Assembly: GCA_039196665.1 (NCBI GenBank)
Contig: JBCCUQ010000008.1
Span: 1,996-65,995 of the forward strand
Direction of reading: 5' to 3'
Origin: Pseudomonadota bacterium
GTDB taxonomy: Bacteria > Pseudomonadota > Alphaproteobacteria > Caulobacterales > Parvularculaceae
DNA length: 64,000 nt
In this document: positions 39,896 through 57,665 of the stretch, piece by piece
How positions within the stretch are numbered: position 1 is the first letter of the stretch
Layout: every line of letters begins with the position of its first letter
Translations under genes and position numbers: made by a program
Notes under the pieces: model-generated
Databases searched by the model: none
What the model was told of the DNA's origin: nothing
Seen by the model: the letters and a program-made list of their open reading frames with translations, nothing else

Positions 39896-40130
39896 ACGCT
39901 GATCCGGCTTCAATAGCCCGCTTGATGCTGCACCGCACGATTTACTCTTCAATGTTATTATGAAACATATGCTCCGTAGGGCGATGGTTTGTGCGGAAGA
40001 GGATAAAGCACCCGCGCATTTATAAACTTTCAAATAAGGATCGTCATGCCCAAACGGCGCAGCCTCGCTGCAACCGTCCTATTGTTGCGTATTCCATTAT
40101 CATTACCGGACCAGAGGGAGAACGAATAAA

Positions 40131-40892
40131 ATGCATTTATTCAAGAGACTGATATCGATCGGCGCAGCCGCGGCGTTCACGGTAACAACAGGCTTTGCGC
40201 AGGATGGGCCAAGCATGAGCATGGTCACTTTGCTGGAAGTGACGCCCGCAAAAGAGCAGCAATTCGACAGCGCCTGGATGACGATCAAGGAGATTGCTAC
40301 GGAAAACGATTATCCCTACACAGAATTTGTCGGCGGCATGCGCAATGAACGCTGGATTGCGACACCTATCAACAGCTACGCCGATGTCGATGCTGTTTTC
40401 GCAGCCAGAGAGGCGGTGACCGAAGCCGGCGGCAAGAAATATAAAAAGGCGATCGCGAGTTTTCAGGACGCATTGATGACGTCCCATACATTTTTTACCC
40501 AGCGTGACGCCGACCTTTCCTATTCGCCTGAAGGCTCAGAACCAGGCCCGTTCATGGAGATTGATAGTTTTCAATATCAATATGGCGCCGACGAGGAAAT
40601 GGAATCTATTCTCGCGGACTACAAAGCGTTGATGGAATCAAAACAAAGCCCTTACGCCTACGAGGTCAACTGGGACGGTCTTGGCGTTGAAGGAAACTCA
40701 ATCACCATTATCTCCTTCGCCGAAAACGCGGTCGCCATGGCGCAAGCCAACGCAGCAATCAATGAAATGCTCGAAGGCGATGAAGCCGCCGAAGCGTTGT
40801 TTGCAAGGTTTCTCGCCATCTCGGGAGGATCGGAGACGATGCATAGCGTTTTCAATCCTGAGGCGACAATAAACATGCCAAGCCCTGAATAA
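40131..40892 (+). CDS. exported acidic hypothetical protein, two similar domains
   Basis: Signal peptide ending GFA; RBS GAGGGAG; two halves of similar size and pattern. Confidence 0.7.
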   Translation: MHLFKRLISIGAAAAFTVTTGFAQDGPSMSMVTLLEVTPAKEQQFDSAWMTIKEIATENDYPYTEFVGGMRNERWIATPINSYADVDAVFAAREAVTEAGGKKYKKAIASFQDALMTSHTFFTQRDADLSYSPEGSEPGPFMEIDSFQYQYGADEEMESILADYKALMESKQSPYAYEVNWDGLGVEGNSITIISFAENAVAMAQANAAINEMLEGDEAAEALFARFLAISGGSETMHSVFNPEATINMPSPE

Positions 40893-40923
40893 CGGCCCGC
40901 ATCAAAACAAGACGGAGGACTGG

Positions 40924-41874
40924 TTACGACTGGTCTTCCGTCGATGTCTCGTCCCTGCCGAAGTTCGGCGCCGCTGTTTCCTGACCGGCCTCTACAATCG
41001 CACGACGCAAAGCGCGCCCGCGCGTGAACGCATCATAAAGCGCATCGCCATCACCCCACCGAATCGCGCGCTGCAGAACAGCCAGCTCTTCGGAAAACCG
41101 ACCCAGCACCTCCAGTACAGCGTCCTTGTTATTGACAAAGACATCGCGCCACATAACAGGGTCCGAGGCGGCGATACGCGTAAAGTCCCGGAAACCGCCC
41201 GCTGAATATTTAATCGTTTCCGCCTCAGTGACGGATTCAATGTCGTCAGCGGCGCCGACCAGCGTAAACGCAATCAGGTGCGGCAAGTGACTGGTCACCG
41301 CCAACGCCAAATCATGATGGGCGGCATCCATAATCTCAACATGGGCGCCGACCGCTTCCCAAAGCGCGCTCGCACGCGCAATTGCGGCTTTGTAAATATC
41401 GGTATTGCGCTGAAGCGGCGTGATGATGCACCAGCGATCTTCAAACAATGAGGCGAACCCCGCTTCCGGGCCCGACTGCTCTGTGCCCGCCACCGGATGA
41501 CAAGGCACAAACGCAATGTCATCGCGCAGTGTTTCAGCGGCGCTTGCGACCGCGCCCTTCACTGAGCCAACATCTATCACCAGAGCACCCGCAGGCGCAT
41601 GAGCATTGAGCGAAGCGCACAGCGCTTTAATTGCGCCCACAGGCGTTGCAAGAACGACAAGATCAGCCCCGGCGACCGCGCCGGCAAAATCAGGAGTCGC
41701 CTCATCGACAATGCCCAGCGCCTTTGCGCGGGTGGCGACGTCATCGTTTTGATCGTAACCGATGATCGCGTCGGCCATGTTCGACGAGCGCATTGCGCGC
41801 GCCAGCGACGATCCGATCAGCCCCGGCCCGATAAGCGCAACCTTTTTAAAGGCTGATGGATTGTCAGTCGGCAT
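40924..41874 (-). CDS. tyrA: prephenate/arogenate (cyclohexadienyl) dehydrogenase
   Basis: GPGLIGSS, HPVAGTE, SHLPH, GFRDFTRIAASDP. Confidence 0.93.
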   Translation of the reverse strand: MPTDNPSAFKKVALIGPGLIGSSLARAMRSSNMADAIIGYDQNDDVATRAKALGIVDEATPDFAGAVAGADLVVLATPVGAIKALCASLNAHAPAGALVIDVGSVKGAVASAAETLRDDIAFVPCHPVAGTEQSGPEAGFASLFEDRWCIITPLQRNTDIYKAAIARASALWEAVGAHVEIMDAAHHDLALAVTSHLPHLIAFTLVGAADDIESVTEAETIKYSAGGFRDFTRIAASDPVMWRDVFVNNKDAVLEVLGRFSEELAVLQRAIRWGDGDALYDAFTRGRALRRAIVEAGQETAAPNFGRDETSTEDQS

Positions 41875-42961
41875 GAGTGAAACGTTCTTTCAGCAATTCG
41901 ATACAACGCCGATTGCCATCCTTTTCGCCGATTGAAATACGCAGCCATTCGCCAAGCTTGTAAGGGCCCATTTCACGGACATAAACGCCGTTTGATTTCA
42001 GAAAGCCGAGAATGTCGTCAGCGTTCCGACCGGCTTCAGTAGGGAACTTCACCAAGATGAAATTTCCGAACCCTGGCACGAAATCGAGCCCCATGCCGCC
42101 AAGCTGTTGCGCCATCCAGTCGCGTTCTTCCCGATTGAACTTGCGGTTCTTTTCGACAAATGCCTGGTCTTCAAGCGCCGCAACACCCGCGGCAAGGGCG
42201 CCGGAATTGACATTAAAAGGCCCGCGCACCCGGTTCAGAACATCTGCAATCGCAGTTGAACAGTACCCCCATCCAAGACGCAACCCGCCAAGTCCGTAAA
42301 TTTTAGAAAATGTCCGTGTCATGATGACATTGTCAAAATCATCGACAAGCTGTTCGCCGCCAGCATAATCAGGCTCTTCCATATATTCCGCATAGGCTGC
42401 GTCGATGACGAGAATGATATCCTCGCGCAGATTTTCGCGCAGGCGTCGCACTTCACTATCGGGCAGATAAGTGCCGGTCGGGTTATTCGGGTTCGCCAGA
42501 AAAACGATCCGCGTGCGGTCATCAACCTCTTTAAGGATCGCATCGACGTCGGCGGTCAGATTTTTTTCCGCCGCAAAACGCGGCTCGGCGCCACAGGACT
42601 TCGCCGCCAGCGCATAAACCAGAAACCCGTGTTCCGACTGCACGATATTATCGCCGACACCCACATAGGCCTTGGTCAGAAGCTGCAGGATCTCATCGGA
42701 ACCGGACCCGCAAACCACCCGCGCTGGATCAATATTGTAAATCTCGCCAATTTTATTGCGCAAAGCGTGGGCGCCGCCGTCCGGGTACAAAAAGACGTCG
42801 CCGCCAGCGGCCTTATAGGCTTCCACCGCCAGCGGGCTCGCCCCCAGCGCCGACTCGTTCGACGAGAGTTTATATGTCTTTTGCGCGCCCTCTTCGGGCA
42901 TCGCGCCCTGCACGTAAGGTTTTATGTCCAGAATGCCTGGCTGCGGGGTCGGCTTGGTCAT
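41864..42961 (-). CDS. hisC: histidinol-phosphate aminotransferase
   Basis: KLSSNE, NPNNPTG, DAAYAEY, RTFSKIYGLGGLRLG; start at MTKP (42961). Confidence 0.95.
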   Translation of the reverse strand: MTKPTPQPGILDIKPYVQGAMPEEGAQKTYKLSSNESALGASPLAVEAYKAAGGDVFLYPDGGAHALRNKIGEIYNIDPARVVCGSGSDEILQLLTKAYVGVGDNIVQSEHGFLVYALAAKSCGAEPRFAAEKNLTADVDAILKEVDDRTRIVFLANPNNPTGTYLPDSEVRRLRENLREDIILVIDAAYAEYMEEPDYAGGEQLVDDFDNVIMTRTFSKIYGLGGLRLGWGYCSTAIADVLNRVRGPFNVNSGALAAGVAALEDQAFVEKNRKFNREERDWMAQQLGGMGLDFVPGFGNFILVKFPTEAGRNADDILGFLKSNGVYVREMGPYKLGEWLRISIGEKDGNRRCIELLKERFTHAD

Positions 42962-43025
42962 GACGGTTCTCTCAAAGCTTTCCGGCATATAGCGCTGCCG
43001 GGCGCTTCGCTTCAACCCGGCCGCC

Positions 43026-43775
43026 TTACCCCTTTGGCGGCTTTGCGTCCCGGCGCGAAGGCTGCGGCGCGGCGATCGCCGGACGAAGGGCGCGTCCCCG
43101 CGCGCTGCGCACCAGCCCCACCGGCGCCATCAAGTCCTTGGCGGCCTCGACCATGATTACACCGCCGAGCGCCGGCCAGACGCGTGCGCCCGCCCGCTCC
43201 CACGCCCTTGCGGCGCGCAATAGAACTTTCCCTGAGAAAGGCGGAAAATAGAGCGCCGAATTCCACTGAACCGCTCGAAACATCGCGCCTTCAAGAAGGC
43301 CATTCAACTGGCGCTTCAGATAGGGCCGGCCCGCCGCAAACGGCGTTGAGTCGATCATCGACCAGAGCCCGCGCCGATGAGCCGCGATAATAATCATTCG
43401 CCCATCATCAGCGAGCACACGCCACGCCTCGCGCATCAGCCGATGCGGATCAGGCGATTCTTCAAGTCCATGGATGATGAGCACCCGATCAAGACAGGCG
43501 TCTGGCAGCGGCCATTTGGTCTCACCCACAAGGCTCGCCAGATTGGGGCCGCGTCCCGGCCAGCGAATCACCCCTTGCGCCCCCGGCGAAAACGCGAGCC
43601 GCCGCACGGCGCAGGTGAACGCTTCGAGATAAGGGTTGGCGTAACCAAAACCGGCGAACGCCATCTGCGCGCCATCGCCCCATGCATCAGCCAGCCGCGC
43701 GGAAATAAAATCGCGCACCATCGCGCCCAGGGGCGAGCGGTAGAACTGGTGATATTCCAGAATGTCCGTGCGCAT
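43026..43775 (-). CDS. class I SAM-dependent methyltransferase (YafS-like)
   Basis: GFGYANPY, HGLE, REAWRVL; divergent from gloB as in many proteobacteria. Confidence 0.85.
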   Translation of the reverse strand: MRTDILEYHQFYRSPLGAMVRDFISARLADAWGDGAQMAFAGFGYANPYLEAFTCAVRRLAFSPGAQGVIRWPGRGPNLASLVGETKWPLPDACLDRVLIIHGLEESPDPHRLMREAWRVLADDGRMIIIAAHRRGLWSMIDSTPFAAGRPYLKRQLNGLLEGAMFRAVQWNSALYFPPFSGKVLLRAARAWERAGARVWPALGGVIMVEAAKDLMAPVGLVRSARGRALRPAIAAPQPSRRDAKPPKG

Positions 43776-43879
43776 ATCGCAATGTTCCTGAACGCGCGCG
43801 TTGCCGCGCGCTGCGGAGCCGTTATGCTTAGGTTATGCGGCAAGCGTCAATCGCCGCTTAACGCCGGAAAGGCCATCAC

Positions 43880-44647
43880 ATGCCGATCGAGATCCGCCAG
43901 TTTCCCTGCCTCAACGACAATTACGGGTTTTTGATCCGTGACCGCGAGAGCGGCGTAGTGGCGACGATCGATACGCCGGACGCAAACGCCATCAACGAGG
44001 AGTTGGAGAAGGCTGAATGGACGCTGACCCATATTCTGAACACCCATCACCACTGGGATCATGCTGGCGGCAATCTGGCGCTGAAAGACAAATGGCGTTG
44101 CGAGATTATCGGCCCGCAAGGCGAAGCCGACCGAATTCCCGGTCTTGATCGCGCCGTTGGAGAAGGTGATATCGTCGCGTTTGGCCAAAGCCGCGCAATC
44201 GTTCACGACACGCCGGGCCATACGTCCGGCCACATCATTTATCACTTCACGGATGATCAGGCCGCGTTTGTCGGCGACACGATCTTCGCATTGGGGTGCG
44301 GGCGATTGTTTGAAGGCACGCCGGATCAGATGTGGGCGTCGTTATCCAAAATCGCCGCCATGCCGACTGAGACAAAACTCTATTGCGCACACGAATATAC
44401 ACAAGCAAACGCCGCTTTCGCCTTGACCGTAGATCCACTCAACGAAGCGTTGAAACAACGTGCGAATGAGATCAATCGCCTGCGTGCGGAGGGAACGCCC
44501 ACCGTGCCGACCAATGTTGAAATCGAGCTGGCGACAAACCCGTTCCTTCGCGCGGAAGATGAACATCTGCAGGCCGCGCTCGGCATGAGCGGCGCGGGCG
44601 CAGTAGAGGTTTTTGCGGAGACAAGGCGGCGCAAGGATAATTTCTAG
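43880..44647 (+). CDS. gloB: hydroxyacylglutathione hydrolase
   Basis: THHHWDHAGG, TPGHT, GCGRLFEG, CAHEYT. Confidence 0.96.
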   Translation: MPIEIRQFPCLNDNYGFLIRDRESGVVATIDTPDANAINEELEKAEWTLTHILNTHHHWDHAGGNLALKDKWRCEIIGPQGEADRIPGLDRAVGEGDIVAFGQSRAIVHDTPGHTSGHIIYHFTDDQAAFVGDTIFALGCGRLFEGTPDQMWASLSKIAAMPTETKLYCAHEYTQANAAFALTVDPLNEALKQRANEINRLRAEGTPTVPTNVEIELATNPFLRAEDEHLQAALGMSGAGAVEVFAETRRRKDNF

Positions 44648-44717
44648 CAAGCGCTGAAGTTTCCCTCGCAATGACGACTGTCAGAATGCTCAAAGTATCC
44701 AATGCAGCCTGAAATCC

Positions 44718-44791
44718 TGGAGCGGGTGAAGAGAATCGAACTCTCGTCTTAAGCTTGGGAAGCTCCTGCTCTACCATTGAGCTACACCCGC
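44718..44791 (-). tRNA. tRNA-Gly(CCC)
   Basis: Minus strand GCGGGTGTAGCTCAATGGTAGAGCAGGAGCTTCCCAAGCTTAAGACGAGAGTTCGATTCTCTTCACCCGCTCCA: 74-nt cloverleaf, anticodon CCC, encoded CCA. Confidence 0.97.
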
Positions 44792-45020
44792 CCGATGACC
44801 GGAAGATTTGGGCCGCCAGATGTGGCGCGTTGGGCGAAAAACGTCAAGCTGGCGACATAAAGCCCCGTTCGGAGCCGAAAAGGTCTCGACCTGCGGGCCA
44901 AATCTCACCAAGAATTCATCTCTGCGCCGGGGCGGCGCCATATTCCGGCCCGAGCGAACGGCATTATGTTGGAAACAGCCGGTGTGTTTTGTTTTCGCCG
45001 GCATGGAAAGGAGGCCGTCA

Positions 45021-45833
45021 ATGTTGATGCGGCTTGTTGGAATTCTGGGCGCGCTCTGCGTCGCCATCGGGGTCGCGCTCGCCCCTGCACAAGCGAAAAC
45101 GAAGCGCGAAAAAGCGGAAATCCTGGTCGCCAAGTCAGCGGATACGGTAGCGTATTTCGCCAATGATCCCGCTTATGAGCCGCTGTGGGACCTTGCTGAT
45201 GACGCGAAAGCCATGGTCGTTATTCCACGGTCCCTGCGCGGCGGTTTTGTCTTCGGCGCCTCCGGCGGCAACGCGCTGATGATTGCGCGCAATGAGGATG
45301 GCAGCTGGTCGGAGCCGACCTTCTTCACTATCGGATCGATCTCGTTTGGTTTGCAGATCGGCGGTGAAGCGTCGGAATCCGTGCTGCTCGTCATGACCAA
45401 TCGCGGCATGGAGGGACTTTTGTCGTCGACCGTTAAACTCGGCGCCGATGTTTCTCTCGCCGCGGGCCCGATCGGCGGCGGCGCTAAGGCGCAGACGGCC
45501 GATATTTTGGCGTTTTCACGCTCGCGCGGACTTTATGGAGGCTTGAGCCTTGAAGGCGCTTTGCTGAAATCACGAAACAGCTGGAACCGCGAATATTACG
45601 GCGCGGACGTAACGCCGGCGGATATCATCTTCCGCGAAAAGGTCGCCCGCCCGCAATCGGCGACACTGCAAAACGCGGTCTGGGCGCTGGCCAATCGAGA
45701 TGCGCCGACAATGATGGCGCCAGTGCAGCCGACGCAGCTTGATCCGGTTACCGGCGAGCCACTGCCCGAAGAGCCGGTCTATGAGGATGACGCCGTTTAC
45801 GGCGCGCCGCTGGAGCCGATTGAAGACGAATAA
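45021..45833 (+). CDS. lipid-binding SYLF/YSC84-related protein
   Basis: RBS GGAGG, signal peptide, GFVFGASGG, SFGLQIGG, SRGLYGGLSLEG. Confidence 0.9.
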   Translation: MLMRLVGILGALCVAIGVALAPAQAKTKREKAEILVAKSADTVAYFANDPAYEPLWDLADDAKAMVVIPRSLRGGFVFGASGGNALMIARNEDGSWSEPTFFTIGSISFGLQIGGEASESVLLVMTNRGMEGLLSSTVKLGADVSLAAGPIGGGAKAQTADILAFSRSRGLYGGLSLEGALLKSRNSWNREYYGADVTPADIIFREKVARPQSATLQNAVWALANRDAPTMMAPVQPTQLDPVTGEPLPEEPVYEDDAVYGAPLEPIEDE

Positions 45834-45868
45834 GGCGTAAGACCTCACAGCAACGCGATCCTGAAGTG

Positions 45869-45900
45869 AACGCCCGCCGGTTGCCGCCGGCGGGCGTTTT
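45869..45900 (+). terminator. intrinsic terminator
   Basis: AACGCCCGCCGG-ttgccg-CCGGCGGGCGTTTT, perfect 12-bp stem. Confidence 0.75.
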
Positions 45901-45937
45901 GTCATAGCCATGGGTCGTGACGGCGGACGGGGAAAAT

Positions 45938-46891
45938 ATGGCTGACGGCCAAGCTAACAACTGCGCAGCTGCGTTCGGAAAATTTCAGCACCCGAACATA
46001 ACTGCTGACGGCGCCACGCGCGCCAGCGTAAGCCTGACACATCTGGATACGCTATGGGTCAACACCGGCACGCTCTGCAATGTGGAATGCGCCCACTGCT
46101 ATATCGAATCTTCGCCCACAAATGACCGCCTAGCCTATCTAACATGCGACGAGCTTGCGCCGTTTCTGGACGAGGCGAAAGCCATGGGCGCACGCGAAAT
46201 CGGCTTTACCGGCGGCGAGCCATTCATGAATCCGGGAATGATCGCGATGATCGAAGCATCGCTGGATCGTGGTTTTTCCGTTCTGGTATTGACCAACGCC
46301 ATGCGCCCGATGATGCGCCCCAGAATGCAGGAGCAGTTATTATCGCTGCACAAGCGTTTCGGCAAAACGCTCGCCTTGCGCGTCAGTCTCGATCATTACA
46401 GCGCCGACCGCCACGATGAAGAACGCGGGCCCGGAACCTTTGCCGTGGGCATGGAGGGCTTGATCTGGCTGGCGCGGCACGGTTTTACTTTCAGCGTCGC
46501 GGGCCGCACACTCTGGAATGAAGATGAGGCCGAAATGCGCCATGGCTTTGCCGCGCTTTTCGAAAAAACTGGCATCTCTCTTGATGCCCATGCGCCGGAG
46601 GATTTGATCCTGTTTCCGGAAATGGACGAAACAGCGCCGGTCCCCGAAATCACCGCCGAATGCTGGTCACTGCTCGATAAATCGCCCGCCGACATGATGT
46701 GCGCCAGTTCTCGCATGCTCGTTAAGCGCAAAGGCGCCGACGCGCCCGCCGTTCTTTCCTGCACGCTGCTGCCCTATGATCCGCAATTCGAAATGGGGAA
46801 AACGCTCAAAGAAGCGTCAGCACCGGTGAAGTTGAACCATCCCCATTGCGCGAAATTCTGTGTCCTTGGCGGCGCCAGCTGTTCCGGCTAA
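45938..46891 (+). CDS. radical SAM protein with Cys-rich C-terminus
   Basis: CNVECAHC (CxxxCxxC), FTGGEPF, C-terminal HCAKFCVLGGASCSG. Confidence 0.9.
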   Translation: MADGQANNCAAAFGKFQHPNITADGATRASVSLTHLDTLWVNTGTLCNVECAHCYIESSPTNDRLAYLTCDELAPFLDEAKAMGAREIGFTGGEPFMNPGMIAMIEASLDRGFSVLVLTNAMRPMMRPRMQEQLLSLHKRFGKTLALRVSLDHYSADRHDEERGPGTFAVGMEGLIWLARHGFTFSVAGRTLWNEDEAEMRHGFAALFEKTGISLDAHAPEDLILFPEMDETAPVPEITAECWSLLDKSPADMMCASSRMLVKRKGADAPAVLSCTLLPYDPQFEMGKTLKEASAPVKLNHPHCAKFCVLGGASCSG

Positions 46892-46900
46892 ACCAACCTT

Positions 46901-47569
46901 ATGCCAGCAGACGAAAACAAATCTCCGCGCGAAATTGCGCTGGAGAACCGCGAAATTGAAGGCGAAAAGCTTTATTCGCCATCGGCGGCGCGTAATCGCG
47001 ACGCCATCCGAGACGTGATCGTCGCGCATATGCCCGCCAGCGGGACCATTCTGGAAGTTGGCGGCGGCACCGGCGAACACGCTGTCCACATGGCGCGCGC
47101 GCTCCCCCACATTCAATGGCGAACGGGCGACCCGGATGCGACGTCCCGCGCCTCCATTGCCGCCTGGATCGGGGATAGCGGGCTTTCGAACCTCTATGGA
47201 CCGCATGCCATCGATGTCAGCGCTGACGACTGGGGCGTTGAGGATGCGGCGCCGTTTGCAGGGCTGGCCTCCATCAACATGATCCACATTGCGCCATTTA
47301 GTGCAGCGACAGGCCTGTTCGCTGGCGCAGGCCGGCTGCTCGTCCCTGGCGGCAAGCTATTTCTCTACGGCCCGTTTTCACGCAATGGCGCTCACACCGC
47401 GCCGTCCAACGAAGCCTTTGACGCCAGTCTGAAATCGCGAAACTCGGAGTGGGGCGTGCGAGACATTGAGCACGATCTTGCGCCATTGGCGCAGAAAAAT
47501 GCACTGACGCTCGACACAGTTGTGGAAATGCCGGCGAACAATCTTTCCCTTGTCTTCAACAAACACTGA
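46901..47569 (+). CDS. DUF938 family SAM-dependent methyltransferase
   Basis: SPSAARNRDAI, EVGGGTGEH, YGPF, MPANN. Confidence 0.92.
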   Translation: MPADENKSPREIALENREIEGEKLYSPSAARNRDAIRDVIVAHMPASGTILEVGGGTGEHAVHMARALPHIQWRTGDPDATSRASIAAWIGDSGLSNLYGPHAIDVSADDWGVEDAAPFAGLASINMIHIAPFSAATGLFAGAGRLLVPGGKLFLYGPFSRNGAHTAPSNEAFDASLKSRNSEWGVRDIEHDLAPLAQKNALTLDTVVEMPANNLSLVFNKH

Positions 47570-47636
47570 CAAGTTGCTGAAATCATTCTCTTGAATCTTC
47601 CCCAAATCTTTTTCGAAAGATTGTGGAAAAGTATGA

Positions 47637-47665
47637 TTCGACCAAGCCCGAAAAGTTGGTATCCT
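47637..47665 (+). promoter_or_regulatory. sigma70-like promoter of the candidate ncRNA
   Basis: TTCGAC-17 nt-TATCCT with TG extended -10. Confidence 0.55.
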
Positions 47666-47671
47666 GATCAT

Positions 47672-48166
47672 GTTTCGCGGTTCTATCAGGTAATTCGAAG
47701 CGTTTGCCTAGCGACGGGTTACACGAGCTAACGAAATGATGAGCAAACCAGCAGCAACGCTCAGGCGCTGACTGGAAAATTGGTCAAAGGTAGGCCAACG
47801 CGCATCTGACGAACCTGAGCGGTTCGGCTTCCAGACGAATGCGCGAAAGCGTGTTCGCAAGGAGGTCCCGGGATCGCCGTGAGCAACGGGCAAGTTGCAA
47901 ATCGGCGCGCGGCGTTAAAAGTCGAGGAAGGTGCAAGCCGGATACGGCAAGAGATGACGCGGATCTGAAAGACGCAGCGGTCGTGGCGGCTAACGAGCCT
48001 CGGGATGATGCGCCGGAAAGGTCTAGTGGCGGAAAAGCGGAGCAGTAATGTTTCGATTTAACTGTCGCGTCGGAGAACATTCGGATTCTCACTGGATTGG
48101 GGTGTCCTTCGATATTCCGCGAGAGCGGACGAAAGGGAGTTGCTTCGGCAGCTCCCTTTTTGTTTT
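47672..48166 (+). ncRNA. candidate large (~500 nt) structured non-coding RNA
   Basis: No credible ORF; run of short hairpins with GNRA/UUCG loops; upstream promoter-like box and downstream terminator. 5' end is estimated. Confidence 0.7.
48132..48166 (+). terminator. intrinsic terminator
   Basis: AAAGGGAGTTGC-TTCG-GCAGCTCCCTTTTTGTTTT. Confidence 0.88.
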
Positions 48167-48216
48167 ATTATTAGGCTTTCTCGGGTTGCTTCGACCGGCA
48201 GCACATTAGCGCGCCG

Positions 48217-49317
48217 TCACCGAAAATGCTTCGACAGCTTCAACCCCTGCCCCTGATAGTTTGACTTCACATCCGCGCCGTAAAGCTGCTCAGGACGCTT
48301 GGCCATACGCTCATAGACGAGGCGCGCCACCAATTGCCCATCCTCGAGCACGAAGGGCGCATCATGGCTTCTAACTTCAAGAACTGCGCGCGATCCGTTA
48401 GCACCGCCCCCTGCCCTTTCTGCCGACCATCCGAAGCCAGGGTCGAAAAAGCCTGCATAATGCACGCGAAACTCGCCGAGGCCGGGATTGATCGGTGTCA
48501 TTTCCGCTGCATAGTCCGGCGGAATGACCAGCGCCTCTTTGGAGGCCAGAATATAAAACTCATCCGGATCAAGAATGATAAAGCCGGATTTTTGCGAACC
48601 CAGCGGTTCAAAAAAATCATTGGCGTCGAGCGCGCCCGGTTGGTCAACATCGATTAGCCCTGAATGGCGTCGGGCGCGCCAGCCGATGATTGCATCGTCA
48701 GTTTTCAGCGAAACACTTAAGCCCAGCCCACCGTCGATATCGCTGTCGCCATCAACCAGCGGGCTTTCTTTGTCCAGTGCGCGCAGCGCGTCATCATCAA
48801 GGCGAAAATCGCCGCGTTTCAAACGCAATTGGTTCAGGCTCGACCCGGTGCGCGCAAAAATTGAAAACGTCCGGGGGCTGATCTCTGCGTATAATGGCCC
48901 GTCATAGCCCGCAGGGACTTCGTCAAACGCCGCGCCGTGATCCGTAACCAGACGCACAAAGACATCGATACGGCCTGTGGAACTTTTGGGGTTGGCGGCG
49001 CCGGAAACATCCGCCGGCAGGCGTAGCCGTTCGTTCAACTCGACGAGATAAACACAACCGCGTTCAAAAACGACGCCGCCTTTCAGGCTGAAGGCGTTCA
49101 TGACGAGGCCATCATCAAGGCGGGCGGCGACCGTGCGCGCACGCGATGGCAGGAATGACGCGCGCACCCGCCATGCGCGTGTCCCAAGGGTCAGATCAAG
49201 ACTCGCCGGTTGCAGCCGCGAAGGCGAAGCCCCCGTGATCTCACCGCGCCGCATAAGCTCTGCGATCATCCCTGCGGCGAAGACGCCGTCTTTTCTATCC
49301 AATTTCACATCATCCAT
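48217..49317 (-). CDS. dcd: 2'-deoxycytidine 5'-triphosphate deaminase (alphaproteobacterial duplicated-domain type)
   Basis: QPASLDL, ANPKSSTGRIDVF, HYAGFFDPGFG, YQGQGLKLSKHF; start placed at 49317. Confidence 0.9.
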   Translation of the reverse strand: MDDVKLDRKDGVFAAGMIAELMRRGEITGASPSRLQPASLDLTLGTRAWRVRASFLPSRARTVAARLDDGLVMNAFSLKGGVVFERGCVYLVELNERLRLPADVSGAANPKSSTGRIDVFVRLVTDHGAAFDEVPAGYDGPLYAEISPRTFSIFARTGSSLNQLRLKRGDFRLDDDALRALDKESPLVDGDSDIDGGLGLSVSLKTDDAIIGWRARRHSGLIDVDQPGALDANDFFEPLGSQKSGFIILDPDEFYILASKEALVIPPDYAAEMTPINPGLGEFRVHYAGFFDPGFGWSAERAGGGANGSRAVLEVRSHDAPFVLEDGQLVARLVYERMAKRPEQLYGADVKSNYQGQGLKLSKHFR

Positions 49318-49545
49318 AAGACCGGTTTGCCCGTCGCGAGCCCGGCGCGCAAGATCGTCATGCGCGAGCCTCGCCCTCCATTTTCCCCGTCCCGTTGAAA
49401 TGCATGTCCTGTCTGGCGCTTTGCCCCGGCGCGGACTAAACTGCACCCTTTGGTCGGCGTCATGCGTTAAAGCTATGGGCGCGACTGATTGGGCAAGGAC
49501 GTTCAGCAATTGGGACGGCGAAGAGAAAATCGACGGCACTCAGCC

Positions 49546-49938
49546 ATGTATGAGCGCATTACGCGCGGCATTCGCGTGAGCGTCAGCCCGCATTATCTTG
49601 AGGATCAATCTGATCCTGAAGAGCCGCGCTATGTCTGGGCCTATACCGTTCGCATTGATAACGAGTCCGCGGAAAGCGTACAGCTGCGCGGGCGGTACTG
49701 GCGCATCACGGACGCCAAAGGTTTTACCGACGAGGTCGCCGGCGACGGCGTTGTCGGCGAGCAGCCGGTCATTCGCCCGGGCGAAGGTTTCGAATATACG
49801 TCGGGGGCGCCGCTGACGACGCCATCGGGCCTGATGGTCGGGCGATACAGCATGGAAACGCCGGAGGGCGAGGCGTTCGAAGTCGACATCCCGGCGTTCT
49901 CCCTCGACAGCCCTCACGAATTACGCCAGATCCACTAG
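49546..49938 (+). CDS. apaG: ApaG protein
   Basis: [28 protein letters not shown]. Confidence 0.96.
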
Positions 49939-49992
49939 GCGAATAAGGACCGCCGCAGGACATGTGTAATCCTGTGCGCCGGCATTGATCAG

Positions 49993-51465
49993 ATGTTTGC
50001 TTTCCGACCGGTAGTTCTGGTGACGGGTGCGCTTGTCACAGCCCTCGGCCTCACCATGCTGATACCGATGATTGCCGATCTCCTGTCGGCTGACGAGGTG
50101 CATCGCGCCGATTGGGGCGCGTTCGCCATCGGCGCCATTATCAGCGTACTCGCCGGCGGCGGCGCCGCAGCCGCAAGCTGGGGACCGATTGACCAGATCA
50201 CGACGCGGCAGGGGTTTTTACTCACAGCGGCAAGCTGGTTTGCGCTCGTCGTCTTCGCCGCCATCCCTCTCACCCTCGGCGGTCTCCAACTTTCCTATGT
50301 GGACGCATTTTTCGAGGCGATGTCGGGCCTCACCACCACTGGTTCAACGGTCGTGACCGGCCTTGATGACGCGCCCCCGGGGGCGCTCTTGTGGCGTTCC
50401 ATGCTGCAATGGTTTGGCGGCGTCGGGATCATCATCATGGCCTTCGCGGTCCTGCCGGCATTGCGCGTCGGCGGCATGCAGATTTTCAAGAGCGAAGCCT
50501 GGGACACGTCTGAAAAATTCATCGCCAACGCCGCGCAATATTCGCTGTCGCTCTCAATGATCTATGCGTTTTTCACTATATTGTGCTTTCTACTGTTGTG
50601 GGCGTTCGGCATGCCTGCATGGGACGCGGTCAATCACGCCATGACGACCGTCGCGACGGGCGGGTTTTCAACAAAAGACGCATCCATCGGCGCATTTCTG
50701 ACGGTCGGTCGCGCGCCGCTCGATATGGTCGTGACCGTCTTTATGATCATTGGCAGCCTTCCCTTTGGCATTTTTCTCGCAGCGCTTTTGCGCGGCGCAT
50801 GGCGGCGCTTGTTTACGGACAGTCAGATACAATTCTTTCTCGTGATCGTTGCATTCCTGACCATCGCCATGATGTTGCATGTTCAAACGGTGTTGGAGGT
50901 GGATCCGTTTACAGCGTTTCGACTCTCAGCATTCAACATTGTCTCCATCATTACCGGCACTGGATACGCGACAACCGATTATTATGCTTGGGGACCGTTT
51001 GCGCATGGCGTCTTCTTTTGCATTATGTTCATCGGCGGCTGCGCGGGATCGACTTCATGCGGCATGAAAGTCTTTCGATTCCAGGTTGCGCTCGCAGCGC
51101 TGATTGTCTACGCGCGACGTTTGGCGCATCCGAATGGCGTCTTTGTGGCGCACTATAATCACCGTCCGCTGACGGACGATGTATTCGTATCGGTGCTAAG
51201 CTTTTTCTTTGTGTATTTTGCATCTTTTGCGACCCTGGCGGTCCTGTTATCCGGGCTGGGGCTCGACACGTTAACCGCACTGTCGGCGGCTGGCACCGCA
51301 ATCGCTAATGTCGGCCCAGGTCTTGGCGAAGTGGTTGGTCCCGCGGGCAATTTTGCGCCTTTGCCTGACGCAGCTAAACTTCTTCTCGCCGCAGGCATGC
51401 TGCTTGGCCGGCTGGAGCTATTCACTATTCTTGTGCTGTTCTCGCCTACATTCTGGCGGGACTAA
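49993..51465 (+). CDS. trkH: TrkH family potassium uptake protein
   Basis: FEAMSGLTTTGST, TGGFS, TGTGY, NVGPG pore-loop motifs; GRLE. Confidence 0.95.
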   Translation: MFAFRPVVLVTGALVTALGLTMLIPMIADLLSADEVHRADWGAFAIGAIISVLAGGGAAAASWGPIDQITTRQGFLLTAASWFALVVFAAIPLTLGGLQLSYVDAFFEAMSGLTTTGSTVVTGLDDAPPGALLWRSMLQWFGGVGIIIMAFAVLPALRVGGMQIFKSEAWDTSEKFIANAAQYSLSLSMIYAFFTILCFLLLWAFGMPAWDAVNHAMTTVATGGFSTKDASIGAFLTVGRAPLDMVVTVFMIIGSLPFGIFLAALLRGAWRRLFTDSQIQFFLVIVAFLTIAMMLHVQTVLEVDPFTAFRLSAFNIVSIITGTGYATTDYYAWGPFAHGVFFCIMFIGGCAGSTSCGMKVFRFQVALAALIVYARRLAHPNGVFVAHYNHRPLTDDVFVSVLSFFFVYFASFATLAVLLSGLGLDTLTALSAAGTAIANVGPGLGEVVGPAGNFAPLPDAAKLLLAAGMLLGRLELFTILVLFSPTFWRD

Positions 51466-52343
51466 AGAGCTGACGCGCTGAACGTGTCGCAAACATCGAC
51501 ATCACCTGAGCGATATCCGTTGATGAACCAGCGCTGACGTTGGGCAGAAGTCCCATGAGTAAAACTCTCCGGCGTCACCCGACGTCCCGCATTACGCTGC
51601 AATGTGTCATCGCCAATCGCCTCAGCAGCACGCAAACCTTCCTCAATGTCGCCCTCATCGAGAAGCCCGCTGGTGCGGTCCGCATGATGCGCCCACACGC
51701 CGGAATAACAGTCGGCCTGCAACTCCATGCGCACCTGCAACGCATTCGCTTCACCATCGCCGCGCGCGCGTTGCTGTGCTGTTCGCACCTGGTTCGAAAT
51801 CCCGGTCACTGTCTGAATATGATGGCCGACCTCATGCGCGATCACATAGGCTGCAGCGAAGTCACCGGGGGCGCCAAAGCGCTGAGCCAGTTCCTCAAAG
51901 AAACTGGCGTCGAGATAAAGTTTCCGATCCGCAGGACAATAAAACGGACCCGATGCGGCCGACGCATATCCGCATGCTGACGATACGCTGCCGCTGAACA
52001 TTACCAGCGTGGGTTCAGGGTAATCGGATCCCGCAGCCTGAAATTCTCGCGACCAGACGTCTTCGGTTTCAGCCAAAACCACCCGGACAAATTGCGACGT
52101 CTCGTCATCAATCGGCGCCGCCGCCTGCTGCTGCGCCGGCTGACCCTGTAACAGGGCGATGGGATTTGCCCCCGCCAGGTAAAGTCCAACGCCAACCACG
52201 CCAAGCATGAATAGCCCGCGGATGCCGAACCGCCCAATGATGAAGCGCACCAGCATTATGAGGATGCCGCCGCCGGCGGCGGCGGCCGCTCCACGGCGAT
52301 CCTCAACGTTCCGGCTTTCCCGCCGCCCTCGCCATTTCACCAT
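51462..52343 (-). CDS. neutral zinc metallopeptidase (YpfJ-like)
   Basis: GPFYCPAD, HEVGHHIQ, ELQADC, HGTSAQR. Confidence 0.92.
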   Translation of the reverse strand: MVKWRGRRESRNVEDRRGAAAAAGGGILIMLVRFIIGRFGIRGLFMLGVVGVGLYLAGANPIALLQGQPAQQQAAAPIDDETSQFVRVVLAETEDVWSREFQAAGSDYPEPTLVMFSGSVSSACGYASAASGPFYCPADRKLYLDASFFEELAQRFGAPGDFAAAYVIAHEVGHHIQTVTGISNQVRTAQQRARGDGEANALQVRMELQADCYSGVWAHHADRTSGLLDEGDIEEGLRAAEAIGDDTLQRNAGRRVTPESFTHGTSAQRQRWFINGYRSGDVDVCDTFSASAL

Positions 52344-52524
52344 GTCACTGTCCCCTTATCTTGCACAGTTAACCAAGCGGCGTAGCTAAACCGAAAACAA
52401 TCCATAATGTCGAGGGTTCCAGCGCCGCCGCGGCTTCCCGCACGCCCGCCGGGCCGGTTTGCGGCGCGCCTTGACTTGGGGCCGCTCAGCGGGGATTCTA
52501 GCTCGGGGATTGATGGGGAGCTCC

Positions 52525-53853
52525 ATGTCGGGTTCAGGCCACTATACGAGGCTAGCCGCCGCGCTGTTTACCGCAGCGTTGCTCGCCTTTGTCATTATGA
52601 AGCCAAACGCCGGCAAGGACGCAGTCGCGCGCGTCGCCAGCATTGCCGGCTCTGTGGAAAAAACACCGCTTTCCGCGCGGGCCTGCGCCATCGGCGACCC
52701 GGCGCTCTCCGGTCCGTTTGCGCCGGTCGAGGATGTGCTCAGCATTTCACCGCTTGGCGGCGTCACTGCGCCAGGCGAAGTGCTGCCTGCGCCCTATCTG
52801 CGAATTAATATGAAAAAAGGCGACAGCGCTTTTGAGCGTCGGACCACAACCGCATTGGCGCCGGCGCGCGCGGACATCGTAGCGCTCGAGCGCAAGATCG
52901 AACGTGACCCGTATGGACGCGCCACATCGCAGTCATGGACGGTGCATTTCCGGTCCTGTGAAAATATTTCATTTTACTATGACGACATTGACTGGATAAG
53001 CGACGCCATCCTTGAGCGCGCTGGCGGTCTGAACGCGTTCACGGAACTCGGCGGGCCGGACCACATTGCGCTGGAAACAAAAATTCGCGTTCCCGAAAGC
53101 GAGGTCATTGGCGAGACCAATGGTTTTAACGTGGGCTTGCATGACCTGGCCGCTGCGCCAAAAGCACTGGAGCGCCCTGATCGTTACCGCACAAACCCTT
53201 ATGCGCGCGCCGCAGCGCTCGACGCGCCACCATCGCTGATCGAAGCAATTACACCGAATACCGCGCAAGCCCGTTGCGCTCTCGATTATCTGCCGAAAGA
53301 TCTGCAGGCGGAATGGTCCGCAAAACTCGGGGACAGCTGGGGCATCCGCAAGGCGAAAGGCGAAGACGCCTGCCGCACCGCTCTACCAGACGAACCGGGC
53401 GCGGCGGAAGGCGTCTGGCACACCGACTCTGCGCATAATGGCGCAACGACAAAAATCAGCGCGATTGCCCTAGCGAGCGATTCCATCGATCCGGACCGGT
53501 TGATTTTTGCCCTCCATGGTCGCCTTCCGTCGTTAAGCCCGGCGTTGGTCGCCATGGCGCCGAACATGGATGAGGAACGCGCCGAAGCGGCAAAGGATTT
53601 TCTATCCGTCCCGAAAGGCGACGGTCGGATCAACACTCCGTTCAGCACCGTAAAGGACGGTGAGGTCTATTGTTATGAACGGCTTCGGACGAACTTCGTC
53701 GGGCCACAGATTAATGGTGTCATTCTAGTGCAGCGCAATGGTGGAGATGGCCCCGGCGCCTTGAAGATTGAAGCGCGAGGCGATGCGCTTGCTTGCATTG
53801 ACCTGGCGGAACCGTGGGCCTTTACCGGAAATGAAACGGTGTTTTACCGGTAA
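52525..53853 (+). CDS. membrane-anchored hypothetical protein
   Basis: Long ORF, GGGGAG before ATG 52525, one N-terminal TM; no confidently recognised domain. Confidence 0.7.
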   Translation: MSGSGHYTRLAAALFTAALLAFVIMKPNAGKDAVARVASIAGSVEKTPLSARACAIGDPALSGPFAPVEDVLSISPLGGVTAPGEVLPAPYLRINMKKGDSAFERRTTTALAPARADIVALERKIERDPYGRATSQSWTVHFRSCENISFYYDDIDWISDAILERAGGLNAFTELGGPDHIALETKIRVPESEVIGETNGFNVGLHDLAAAPKALERPDRYRTNPYARAAALDAPPSLIEAITPNTAQARCALDYLPKDLQAEWSAKLGDSWGIRKAKGEDACRTALPDEPGAAEGVWHTDSAHNGATTKISAIALASDSIDPDRLIFALHGRLPSLSPALVAMAPNMDEERAEAAKDFLSVPKGDGRINTPFSTVKDGEVYCYERLRTNFVGPQINGVILVQRNGGDGPGALKIEARGDALACIDLAEPWAFTGNETVFYR

Positions 53854-53918
53854 CAAAGCCGCTCTGCCTGATCGCACTCGGCGACATCGCCCTTAGAATC
53901 AAGATTATAGCAGCAGCC

Positions 53919-55550
53919 CTATTCGTCGAGAAACGAGCGAACCGCCTCGTAGAATCGCGGCCAGGCAGGATCACCCTCCGGCATCAGGTGATTATTCGTC
54001 TCAAGCGCTACAAATCGCGCATCCGGGATACAGGCGGCAAGCTCGCGCCCGAAATCGAACGGTACGCGCAAATCGCCGCGAGCATGCGCGACCAGCGTTG
54101 GCGCCTTTATTAGGCTCAAGCGATCATAGACGTTTACAAGCCCCAACGCCTCCAACAGCTGCGCAGCGTTTTCAGGCGAGGTCGTCATGCGTTGTAGTTC
54201 ATTGAACCACTGATGATTTTCAGGCGGCGCGTCCGGCATAAAAAGGGACGCGAACAATTGCCGGAATGCGGGGTCGTCTTTTCCCCAGCCGCTTTTGATC
54301 AGGGTGATCATCGCTTCGGTGTCGGCGATTACCTTCTCCCCGCGCCCGACGCGCCACCCGCGCGCGTAACCGCCGAAGAGTACGAGTTTGGAGACCTTCT
54401 CCGGGTAACGCGCGGCATATTCTACAGCAACAGCGCAACCTTGCGAAATGCCGAGAAGCGGGAACTGGTCGATGCCGGTTGCCTCCACAACTGCTTCCAG
54501 ATCGGTGACCAAAGAATCGAAGGAAAAGTCTTTTACGCGCCAGTCCGAAAGGCCGTTGCCTCGCTCATCATAACGGATGAGCGTGCGATCCGCAGAGAAA
54601 GCACGAAAGAAATGGCGCCAGACCGGACTTTCCCAGTCGAACTCAAGATGGTTGAGCCAATTTGCTGTCTTCACTAGTGGTGGGCCCGAACCGACAGTCG
54701 CATACGCTATTTGAACGCCGTCAGCCGTCTTGCAGAAACGAATATCTTGGCGGCCGAGCGGCGCCTCGGATGCACCCCCGTCAGTACGGTTTATGATTGC
54801 CGCTTGGCCACTCGATACCCTCGTAGCGGAGGGCTTCGCCATTAATGCGGCGTCCAGCAGACCAAGATCGATACCGTCGACACCGTTAAGCGCTTCTTTG
54901 CTCAACCTGACCTGCCGGCTGGCTTCCTTGTTGCGCCCAACCTGCGCCAATGCAGTGATGAGGGCGCCGTGAAGGTCGATATCGTATGGCTCAATCTCAA
55001 TAAGTTCATAAAGACGGTCAGCCCTTGCAGAGTGATCTTCCCCGAGCCGCGCTACAATTGCGCGCAACAGCGCGGCGCGCATGGCCCTCGCTTTCTCACG
55101 ATGCACCAGGAGAAAAGTTTCAAACTCCGGCTGATTCGGTAAATCCAGACCGGCCATCAACTCGCCGGAATATCGATCCGCAAGCTTGATCAGATCAGCT
55201 GTATCGAGATCATCTAGTCGGTCCACGGTCGACTGAAAGTCCAGATAGTCGACATGCACGCCGGATGTATCAAATGCAGCCCGCTCCCGATCAGCTTTGA
55301 TGCGGGCGGCGCTTTCGTCATTGACAATGCCGCGCAGCTTGCTGAGCGACCAGCGCAGGGAGCCACGCGGATCGTCCGGCACTTGCCAGAAAATTTCGCA
55401 AAGGCGCTCGCGTCTTTCCGGCGCACCCTTAAGCGCGAGATAGGCAAGAAGCGCCCGGGTCTTCTTAGATTGTGGCAGGGCAAGACGTTCGCCGTTTCTT
55501 ATTACGACGATGTCGCCAAAAAGCCGGAGTTCAAGATCGCCGGCGCTCAT
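53919..55550 (-). CDS. SARP-like (wHTH-BTAD) transcriptional regulator fused to a C-terminal alpha/beta hydrolase domain
   Basis: KTRALLAYLA...LRWSLSKLR N-domain; WLNHLEFDW, GISQG, NH hydrolase motifs; RBS GAGGAG. Confidence 0.88.
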   Translation of the reverse strand: MSAGDLELRLFGDIVVIRNGERLALPQSKKTRALLAYLALKGAPERRERLCEIFWQVPDDPRGSLRWSLSKLRGIVNDESAARIKADRERAAFDTSGVHVDYLDFQSTVDRLDDLDTADLIKLADRYSGELMAGLDLPNQPEFETFLLVHREKARAMRAALLRAIVARLGEDHSARADRLYELIEIEPYDIDLHGALITALAQVGRNKEASRQVRLSKEALNGVDGIDLGLLDAALMAKPSATRVSSGQAAIINRTDGGASEAPLGRQDIRFCKTADGVQIAYATVGSGPPLVKTANWLNHLEFDWESPVWRHFFRAFSADRTLIRYDERGNGLSDWRVKDFSFDSLVTDLEAVVEATGIDQFPLLGISQGCAVAVEYAARYPEKVSKLVLFGGYARGWRVGRGEKVIADTEAMITLIKSGWGKDDPAFRQLFASLFMPDAPPENHQWFNELQRMTTSPENAAQLLEALGLVNVYDRLSLIKAPTLVAHARGDLRVPFDFGRELAACIPDARFVALETNNHLMPEGDPAWPRFYEAVRSFLDE

Positions 55551-55700
55551 TGCCGCCACTCTCCTCAAGAAAACAGGAACTTACCACGCTTGATCGTCAA
55601 ATTCGACGGGCGTTTCAACGCCAGCCCCAACGCGGCTGTGCAAATCTGGGAAGCGTCGCAGCCATGCGACGGCATTAACAGAAAACCACAGGAGAGCAAG

Positions 55701-55790
55701 ATGCCTAACTCAGTCGAATCAATGCTGGGCGCTGTTGTCACCGCCATTGTCGTCATTGGCGTATTCGTTGCGCTGGCGCCGCTCGTTTAG
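55701..55790 (+). CDS. 29-aa single-TM small protein
   Basis: AGGAGAG RBS 5 nt before ATG; MPNSVESMLGAVVTAIVVIGVFVALAPLV. Confidence 0.6.
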   Translation: MPNSVESMLGAVVTAIVVIGVFVALAPLV

Positions 55791-56895: not shown

Positions 56896-56940
56896 TCACC
56901 AGAAACTGAATCACACGCAATAAACTTAAAGGAGAGAACT

Positions 56941-57633: not shown

Positions 57634-57665
57634 CGACCCCATACAAAAATCAACGGAGAGAAAAC

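Follow-up and report, generated by a model that had tools for sequence, protein, structure and literature searches.

A probable new family of large structured non-coding RNA in the Parvularculaceae

Few bacterial non-coding RNAs (ncRNAs) longer than about 400 nt possess a well-supported complex fold, and those that do have proved to be ribozymes, cores of ribonucleoprotein particles (RNPs) such as RNase P, tmRNA, the signal recognition particle (SRP) and OLE, or self-assembling cages as in the case of ROOL and GOLLD. Here, we describe what is almost certainly a genuine, expressed and structured ncRNA gene on the plus strand of a contig from the alphaproteobacterial family Parvularculaceae (GenBank assembly GCA_039196665.1, contig JBCCUQ010000008.1, positions 1,996 to 65,995). 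This 64-kb stretch is referred to as the window, and coordinates count from its first letter. The gene occupies most of the gap between a DUF938 gene and dcd and has its own promoter and terminator (Table 1). Like OLE, ROOL, GOLLD, raiA and the smtA RNA, its product is lineage-restricted, large, ornate, abundant and of unassigned function (PMC9723947, PMC12286853, PMC11109978).

OLE RNA of the Bacillota offers the first comparison: it, too, has a length of ~500-600 nt, many covarying helices amid invariant nucleotides, high expression from its own transcription unit, a distribution limited to one lineage and a function that could not be deduced from sequence. Yet, the two RNAs occur in different phyla, no match to OLE was obtained in Rfam, and the present locus lacks adjoining partner genes akin to oapA, oapB or oapC. 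The cage-forming ROOL and GOLLD RNAs (PMC12286853) likewise adopt large, ornate structures that contain several GNRA loops as well as tertiary contacts, and an RNA-only quaternary structure of their kind is, by analogy, conceivable here. However, ROOL and GOLLD have a patchy distribution and are usually located in prophages or close to tRNA genes, in contrast to the fixed chromosomal locus of the present RNA, which has neither a phage or viral match nor Rfam similarity to them.

The smtA motif, also called ‘Soda Lake RNA’ (PMC11109978), is confined to Thioalkalivibrio (Gammaproteobacteria), where it lies upstream of smtA; the present RNA differs in taxon and gene position, being alphaproteobacterial and located downstream of DUF938, and nothing in Rfam 15 matched it. 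Finally, 6S RNA, RNase P RNA and tmRNA are similarly abundant, stable, structured and independently transcribed, and appear in RNA-seq assemblies when mRNAs do not. They are universal and non-homologous to the present RNA, though, which is limited to one family and absent from its locus in two related lineages.

Conserved fold, strand and ends of the RNA

At least 22 full-length homologues and one partial homologue, 59-95% identical, are present in Parvularculaceae genomes and metagenomes, and 20 copies (minimum pairwise identity 59%, mean 70%) were aligned for structure prediction. With nine sequences, RNAalifold proposed 135 pairs and compensatory changes at 44 of these; with all 20, the figures were 126 and 64, respectively. 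The model used for counting comprises 124 pairs in 21 helices, i.e. about 20 helices plus the terminator, and thus 2458 cells in 20 sequences. Standard pairs fill 95.6% of these cells, as opposed to 36.7-41.6% in slid controls, in which the 3′ partners are displaced by one to three columns; double-sided changes occur at 64 pairs (16-29 in the slid controls), and the covariation score is 0.390 (0.058-0.122 when slid). None of 500 column shuffles matched the observed value on any of five measures. A preliminary description of this DNA, made by eye from the sequence, had reported a dense series of helices and called for a homologue search with nhmmer; the search returned homologues carrying compensatory changes, and covariation across the 20 copies, unequalled in the shuffles, now backs a dense series of helices here.

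Of the 21 helices, 17 contain two or more compensatory pairs and H15 and H20 a single one, and H14 and H19 show one-sided changes only, which in H19 take the form of G.U/G-C or G.U/A-U exchanges. About 108 alignment columns are invariant, unpaired joining regions among them. With ~495 nt, 21 helices, 64 compensatory pairs and these invariant blocks, the RNA has the attributes by which large ornate ncRNAs, a descriptive class rather than a group of homologues, are recognized (>400 nt, many covarying helices, invariant blocks).

A complementarity scan revealed a kissing pseudoknot between the loops of H5 and H7, in which 99% of cells are paired (2.5-61% in slid controls) and three of the five pairs show compensatory changes in two independent lineages: the variants read CGUUCAA/UUGAACG in loci L010 and L112 and CGCUUGG/CCAAGCG in L146. 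Moreover, four hairpins retain GNRA tetraloops although the N and R positions vary, with GAAA or GCAA at the tip of H8, GCAA in H13, GUAA, GCAA, GAAA or GCGA in H17 and GAGA, GAAA or GUAA in H20.

Ten internal helices had been singled out in the preliminary description, along with a warning that some of them overlap. Six are conserved and/or covarying: TTGG/CCAA corresponds to H6, GAACC/GGTTC to H7, GGT-GCAA-GCC to H13, GAGCA-GTAA-TGTTT to the tip of H17 and CCGC-GAGA-GCGG to H20, while CGC-GAAA-GCG (47842-47851) forms a GNRA-capped stem in every homologue, though it is poorly aligned by MAFFT. The remaining four are unconserved. GCGCAT/ATGCGC is paired in 57% and clashes with the covarying helices H4 and H8; the GGAGG 3′ strand of TTC-GCAA-GGA pairs instead with CUUCC in H8; GCCG-GATA-CGGC is superseded by H12 (GUCG/CGGC); and GGCT-AACG-AGCC falls inside the lineage-variable insert enclosed by H15. 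This insert (47977-48008; alignment columns 330-381) is a short, different segment in some lineages, that of the window included; in several others, it is ~45 nt longer and carries a conserved sequence of its own, GGACAUGGCGAAACGCAAAUGCCGGCAGCCACGA. A pairing of GAUC at the 5′ end with GGUC at 48020, present in the nine-sequence fold, was discarded in favour of the internal H14 pairing GAUCU/AGGUC, which fits better with 20 sequences.

The strand can be read from the fold. Folded as plus-strand RNA, 47670-48170 reaches -204 kcal/mol and z = -4.39 relative to dinucleotide shuffles, compared with z = -0.41 for the minus strand, and the RNA region is purine-rich on the plus strand. G.U pairs make up 13.9% of the paired cells and would be C.A on the opposite strand, where only 82.5% of cells are canonical as opposed to 95.6% on the plus strand. 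Because the G.U cells fail on the opposite strand, the polarity of the RNA is plus, in agreement with promoter and terminator and with the orientation originally proposed.

As for the ends, the start site is placed ~6-7 nt past the -10 box and the 3′ end at the T-run of the terminator. Since H1 covaries, the functional RNA starts no later than 47673. The terminator scan returned a G+C-rich hairpin followed by a U-tract, the hallmarks of an intrinsic terminator, at 48131-48166, where a UUCG terminator at 48132-48166 had been noted before; its stem is conserved, with compensatory changes at four pairs. Read on the minus strand, the same hairpin is followed by UUUCG; in this genome, it could thus act in both directions and weakly terminate transcription of the convergent dcd gene as well.

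Table 1. Features of the RNA gene, its promoter and its immediate neighbours (window coordinates)
Feature	Position	Strand	Remarks
DUF938 gene	46901-47569	+	SAM-methyltransferase fold; 5′ neighbour of the RNA gene
DnaA-box-like element 1, TCTTCCCCA	47596-47604	+	TTTTCC[C/A]CA in most homologues; TTCC-CA invariant in 20 loci
Block AATGTGGAAAA	47620-47630	+	Nearly invariant in 20 loci
DnaA-box-like element 2, TTTTCCACA (TGTGGAAAA on +)	47622-47630	-	Roughly -50 to -42 relative to the transcription start
GANTC (CcrM) site TGATTCG	47634-47640	+	Overlaps the -35 box; GcrA-preferred context
Promoter core	47637-47642 / 47660-47665	+	-35 TTCGAC (or TCGACC), variable spacer of 16-17 nt, -10 TATCCT
-10 block GTATCCTGA	47659-47667	+	Conserved in 20 loci
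RNA gene	about 47671-48166	+	~495 nt; from homologues, covariation model, RNA-run contigs and absence of a conserved open reading frame
5′ domain	47673-47736	+	H1, H2 and H3; compensatory changes at 11/18 pairs
H1	47673-47677/47732-47736	+	Covaries
H2	47680-47683/47725-47728	+	5′ domain
H3	47691-47701/47711-47721	+	Capped by invariant loop UUGCCUAG
H4	47741-47744/47800-47803	+	Encloses H5 and H6; covaries
H5	47748-47755/47767-47774	+	Within H4
H5 loop GCUCA	47759-47763	+	5′ partner in kissing-loop pseudoknot
H6 (TTGG/CCAA)	47780-47783/47795-47798	+	Within H4
H7 hairpin CGAACC-UGAGC-GGUUCG	47810-47826	+	Loop UGAGC (47816-47820) is the 3′ pseudoknot partner
H8 (CUUCC/GGAGG)	47828-47865	+	5/5 pairs compensatory; inner hairpin GNRA-capped, GAAA 47845-47848
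Most conserved core: H9, H10, H11-H13	47875-47961	+	GCAA 47933-47936; includes AUCGCCGUGAGCARCGGGCAAGYUG...CGGCGCGC
H14 (GAUCU/AGGUC) and H15 (CGCA/UGCG)	47962-48023	+	Enclose lineage-variable insert
H16-H17	48026-48068	+	Long hairpin, GUAA loop 48045-48048; 12/15 pairs compensatory
H18-H19	48070-48112	+	Long hairpin of nearly invariant sequence (GAAUUCUCACUGGAUUGGGGUG); 98-99% paired
H20 (CCGC-GAGA-GCGG)	48117-48128	+	GNRA hairpin
Intrinsic terminator	48131-48160 plus T-run to 48166	+	13-bp stem, UUCG loop, U-tract; terminator scan
dcd (dCTP deaminase)	48217-49539	-	Convergent with the RNA gene

Transcripts and comparison with known RNA families

At least 24 public RNA or RNA-like runs contain part of the RNA sequence, among them marine, biofilm, salt-marsh and plastic-surface metatranscriptomes as well as several eukaryote-labelled transcriptomes. 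Contigs from seven RNA-derived runs were mapped over 47300-48500, and those from three of the seven also over 38500-58400 (20 kb, about 18 genes). In all seven, contigs over the gap and its upstream flank are confined to 47683-48139; the 3′ end of DUF938 and the promoter have zero depth, and all that remains are some short fragments matching conserved coding sequence of dcd. The entire contig of run X17 is 452 nt long and spans 47685-48136, and a 420-nt contig of run X4 spans 47683-48102. Across the 20 kb, X4 and X17 cover the RNA alone and X18 covers the RNA, tRNA-Gly and traces. The contigs of a DNA run, X1, cover everything evenly. Because the RNA-run contigs cover the RNA gene almost exclusively, we conclude that it gives rise to a discrete RNA species far more abundant than the neighbouring mRNAs. 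Such discrete, abundant expression in seven runs, here of related strains and without strand information, is a further attribute of large ornate ncRNAs. The check for a ~500-nt transcript that the preliminary description had suggested was thus addressed with RNA-derived contigs of related strains, one of them 452 nt long, and its central proposal of an independently transcribed large structured RNA is upheld by the conserved promoter and terminator together with these contigs.

Abundance of this kind bears on the idea that the locus is not functional as RNA at all and instead represents a decayed gene remnant, a DNA-only element or a set of chance helices. Nothing beyond the presence of unconserved open reading frames (ORFs) speaks for it, and with 64 compensatory pairs, strand-specific folding and a discrete abundant RNA in seven runs, it is already refuted; we give it practically no credence. 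Nor is the gap a coding region. It measures 647 bp (47570-48216) between convergent genes, as opposed to the ~640 bp first estimated, and its longest ORFs (69 aa on the plus and 102 aa on the minus strand) have no Pfam match. Among the homologues, ORFs keep neither their position nor their frame, and column conservation shows no period-3 signal, which together rule out a small-protein gene and accord with the early remark that no ORF here is credible. Public gene calls nevertheless place hypothetical ORFs antisense over the RNA gene (L142:3737-3982 and L150:2111-3106, both on the minus strand, and also in L144). Encoding 81 and 331 aa without a Pfam match, these are probably mis-annotations caused by an unrecognized RNA, and a description of the RNA would correct the public records that carry them.

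The RNA-run contigs all end at or before 48139, within the 5′ arm of the terminator, and one metatranscriptome contig meets Illumina adapter sequence right after 48135. The stop near 48139 could reflect 3′ trimming of the mature RNA or merely poor complementary DNA (cDNA) coverage of the hairpin. Single metatranscriptome contigs also join distant points (47741-47845, 47826-47891 and 47890-48070), skipping 103, 64 and 179 nt, respectively; these may stem from divergent relatives with unaligned middles or from natural variants without sub-domains such as the kissing-loop domain.

Contigs lacking the 3′ arm of the terminator, one of them with an adapter at 48135, could also be taken as a sign of 3′ processing and hence of a large ribozyme, self-processing or trans-acting, whose active site would be the invariant core. 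The compact multi-helix fold with its GNRA loops and pseudoknot and the ~108 invariant columns, including unpaired joining regions, would suit such an enzyme. However, random priming and k-mer assembly would by themselves lead one to expect truncated contigs, there is no similarity to any Rfam ribozyme family, and neither a substrate nor a cleavage product was observed, making a ribozyme improbable.

The relationship to known families was assessed with Rfam 15, as the preliminary description had advised. At gathering thresholds, the whole window contains nothing but tRNA-Gly(CCC) at 44721-44791, and OLE, GOLLD, ROOL, HEARO, raiA, RNase P, 6S, SRP and the alphaproteobacterial small RNAs (sRNAs) in Rfam 15 are unmatched. 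A permissive scan (E <= 10) of 47500-48300 returned three chance-level matches (HCV stem-loop, tsr1 and TMV pseudoknot), and the same scan of two divergent homologues gave sub-threshold matches only, at the terminator end, to RsmY (24 bits), BjrC68 (24 bits) and CsrC (14-16 bits). All of these scores are <= 24 bits, compared with thresholds of 34-270, and the matches of the homologues do not recur for the window copy. ARAGORN found no tmRNA in the window, its one call being tRNA-Gly, and no alpha_tmRNA match was obtained in Rfam. Full-text literature searches likewise retrieved no account of an RNA of this kind from the organisms concerned. There is thus no credible match to the large motifs or to any other family, and the earlier remark that hallmarks of RNase P, tmRNA, 6S or SRP are not seen agrees with the Rfam 15 and ARAGORN results. 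Very probably, therefore, the RNA constitutes a previously undescribed family with no detectable relative, as judged by Rfam 15 and ARAGORN and not by a genome-wide structure-aware search.

The same results bear on a highly diverged housekeeping RNA (RNase P, two-piece tmRNA, 6S or SRP) or an RNA from a mobile element (group II intron, HEARO/omega RNA or retron). Although RNase P RNA and tmRNA are comparable in size and abundance, none of these families was matched at E <= 10 in three homologues and ARAGORN reports no tmRNA; a mobile-element RNA is contradicted by the lack of transposase or reverse-transcriptase genes nearby, by the fixed single-copy locus and by phage, plasmid and viral contigs without a match. 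Either origin appears highly unlikely.

A different possibility is a trans-acting regulator that works through single-stranded loops, be it by pairing with mRNAs or as a sponge for an sRNA or an RNA-binding protein in a Csr/Rsm-like or 6S-like manner. The invariant exposed loops, UUGCCUAG in H3 and UCUCACUG in H19, would be suitable sites, and the weak RsmY (24 bits, E = 8e-4) and CsrC matches in two homologues point in the same direction. However, these matches are confined to the end with the terminator, do not occur in the window copy and remain far under gathering thresholds, and there is no 6S match. A Csr/Rsm-type sponge was rejected on the count of GGA motifs, which are not enriched (15 observed vs 13.1 +/- 3.1 expected) and which, where conserved, lie mainly in stems (four of five). 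Moreover, 495 nt with about 250 paired bases far exceed the needs of a base-pairing sRNA. On this evidence, a loop-based regulator is unlikely, if worth bearing in mind.

Distribution and a promoter with candidate cell-cycle motifs

A genome scan with the dcd protein led to 19 loci, the close ones of which all belong to Parvularculaceae (Hyphococcus, Marinicaulis and Amphiplicatus), and nhmmer detected the whole gap sequence in eight of them at ~63-95% identity to the window. With the DUF938 protein as a second anchor, 11 contigs were taken, and nine of the 11 carry the RNA ~100 nt past the DUF938 stop codon. The metagenome scan used a pattern drawn from the most conserved stretch, ATCGCCGT...CGGG...CGGCGCG, and gave five true homologues among the 120 matches listed, the other 115 being chance matches, which makes the homologue count given above a lower bound. 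The window holds a single copy. Together, these data show that the RNA gene is single-copy, chromosomal and conserved across the genera Hyphococcus, Marinicaulis and Amphiplicatus; cultured carriers include Hyphococcus luteus, H. flavus and H. aureus. No match was found in phage or plasmid collections or, by a scan with the conserved-stretch pattern, in viral contigs. A mobile or phage origin was dismissed in light of these null results, the fixed synteny after DUF938 and the single copy.

While the upstream neighbour is constantly DUF938, the downstream neighbour differs from locus to locus and may lie on either strand: dcd, an MFS transporter, TerB, an acetyltransferase, an SMR pump or a hypothetical gene. 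In Marinicaulis, dcd is >16 kb away from the DUF938-RNA pair, and DNA past the terminator is unalignable among homologues. This arrangement bears on whether the RNA could be a cis-acting element, i.e. a leader or riboswitch of the downstream gene or a processed 3′ UTR of DUF938. The RNA does always follow DUF938 by ~100 nt on the same strand, and a co-oriented gene comes next in some loci (TerB, MFS). Against this, the RNA has its own conserved promoter, the RNA contigs never reach DUF938 or that promoter, and a strong terminator ends every copy ahead of genes that differ in identity and orientation. A riboswitch or leader is largely refuted, given that the next gene is convergent in the window, and a cis-acting element of either kind seems very unlikely.

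Alignment of the 130 nt upstream of the 20 copies resolves the promoter into invariant blocks split by variable sequence. The -35 and -10 boxes are nearly invariant around a variable spacer, and the promoter-like TTCGAC-N17-TATCCT of the preliminary description sits exactly on them. A generic sigma-70 scan left this promoter uncalled; TCGACC-N16-TATCCT scores 8/12.

The GANTC site belongs to a block TGA[T/G]TCGAC (47634-47642). It reads TGATTCG in 17 of the 20 loci and TGAGTCG in the other three and thus varies only at the free N, which stays K. The GcrA consensus for methylated GANTC sites has been given as ‘TGATTCG or, more broadly, YGAKTCK’, TGAGTCG ranks third among 32 GANTC contexts, and a site of this kind no farther than 40 bp from the start is, in Caulobacter, the mark of a sigma-70 promoter activated by GcrA (PMC4647560). 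The site described here conforms to YGAKTCK and its distance from the start is about 40 bp or less; by the Caulobacter consensus, it is a candidate GcrA/CcrM site. In both the context of the GANTC site, TGATTCG or TGAGTCG, and its distance from the start, the promoter resembles GcrA/CcrM promoters of Caulobacter such as PmipZ (PMC4647560), but the known examples of these drive protein-coding cell-cycle genes, whereas the present product is a large ncRNA.

Further upstream lie two DnaA-box-like elements, inverted relative to each other at about -75 and -50. The core of element 1, TCCCCA, equals the Caulobacter W-box consensus (PMC4285127), and ~16 variable nt separate this element from block AATGTGGAAAA. 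Element 2 fits TTWTNCACA and is one mismatch away from the perfect DnaA box TTATCCACA (PMC4285127); as a 9-mer of this form, within the one to two mismatches allowed, 47622-47630 on the minus strand qualifies as a putative DnaA box.

Three other interpretations of the upstream region were tried and dropped. As an RNA hairpin or terminator of DUF938, the upstream inverted repeat lacks a U-tract, has an uncompensated C.U mismatch in most homologues and consists of invariant arms. A replication origin, prompted by the DnaA boxes, is not accompanied by a GC-skew switch across the window. A regulon sharing the promoter was considered for a second TGATTCGAC (55713-55721), which is a chance match without the other elements.

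Transcription of the RNA might be coupled to the alphaproteobacterial cell cycle via CcrM methylation and GcrA, and possibly DnaA, a proposal drawn from promoter motifs for which we see the case as evenly balanced. Given a GcrA-preferred GANTC site at the -35 box and DnaA-box-like 9-mers, one would predict increased expression as cells pass from G1 to S or during S phase.

Proposed function and neighbouring genes

Taken together, we consider the best overall explanation, and a reasonably probable one, to be a structured RNA of a new class, large, abundant and trans-acting, whose promoter is probably timed by the cell cycle. Such an RNA would act in trans as a folded particle, either as the core of an RNP or as a self-assembled architecture, like OLE, ROOL or GOLLD; its invariant blocks (H9-H11, H14-H15, H19 and the H3 loop) would form contact or active surfaces, and the GcrA/CcrM (and possibly DnaA) elements of the promoter would time its transcription to the onset of S phase. 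The notion of a particle arises because the RNA is ~500 nt long with roughly half of its bases paired and combines GNRA loops and a kissing loop with long invariant stretches in helices and junctions. We know of no antisense regulators in which such size, fold, GNRA loops and invariant stretches come together. Still, that the RNA is a trans-acting structured particle, presumably an RNP core, can be proposed only tentatively. More speculative, and rather unlikely in its entirety, is the suggestion that it might found a class of large ornate RNA not described before, the first tied to the alphaproteobacterial cell-cycle circuit, serving as an RNP core or as a self-assembling or catalytic RNA during S phase of dimorphic marine bacteria.

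Several points count against this explanation. The RNA contigs derive from related strains, about 80-97% identical, and are assembled, strandless and inexact at their ends; none of them extends into the 3′ arm of the terminator or back into the initial ~12 nt. In L144 (3667-5813) and L149 (3673-4042), the Ysc84, radical-SAM and DUF938 genes are kept and unrelated sequence occupies the position of the RNA; its absence from these loci implies that it is dispensable or moves. Judging from these sequences, the RNA may not be universal even among close relatives, or it may be located elsewhere in the two genomes. Its reach outside Parvularculaceae was gauged by exact DNA patterns and synteny only. 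Within a 64-kb window, single occurrences of the promoter motifs are insignificant, and since short motifs carry little meaning singly, the promoter argument relies on conservation within one bacterial family. Lastly, the reading as a particle or RNP draws on analogy with other large abundant RNAs.

With covariation, a pseudoknot, conserved GNRA loops and expression, the support is unusually clean for a candidate spotted by eye, and the cultured Hyphococcus carriers mean that genetics and biochemistry can begin directly. If the reading of the promoter is true, the gene would join the few known instances in which the DnaA/GcrA/CcrM programme governs a large structured RNA, offering a testable link between RNA architecture and the cell cycle. 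The narrow taxonomic range restricts the general impact.

Upstream of the RNA, an array of three genes on the plus strand (44808-47569) encodes a Ysc84/SYLF-domain protein, a radical-SAM protein and DUF938 and is kept in all anchored loci. The best subfamily match of the radical-SAM protein is Rv1681-like, at 98 bits against a cut-off of 380, and no characterized subfamily scores above threshold. DUF938, which we take to be the Pfam family that also holds human METTL26, is very widespread: the protein used as synteny anchor has 7994 matches at E <= 1e-20. Both neighbours could, from their predicted families, be partners of the RNA, e.g. as modification enzymes; because DUF938 is so widespread and two lineages carry the genes without the RNA, we regard this as a lead only.

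Elsewhere in the window, G+C content dips locally to 0.496 at 20001-22000, compared with about 0.57. This segment, which lies beside cysS, has unremarkable genes for regulators of the TetR and WYL-HTH types, an alpha/beta hydrolase and a PNPOx-like protein, with no sign of a mobile element among them. The tRNA-Gly(CCC) gene, the sole Rfam or ARAGORN match in the 64 kb, is located at about 44718-44791 on the minus strand.

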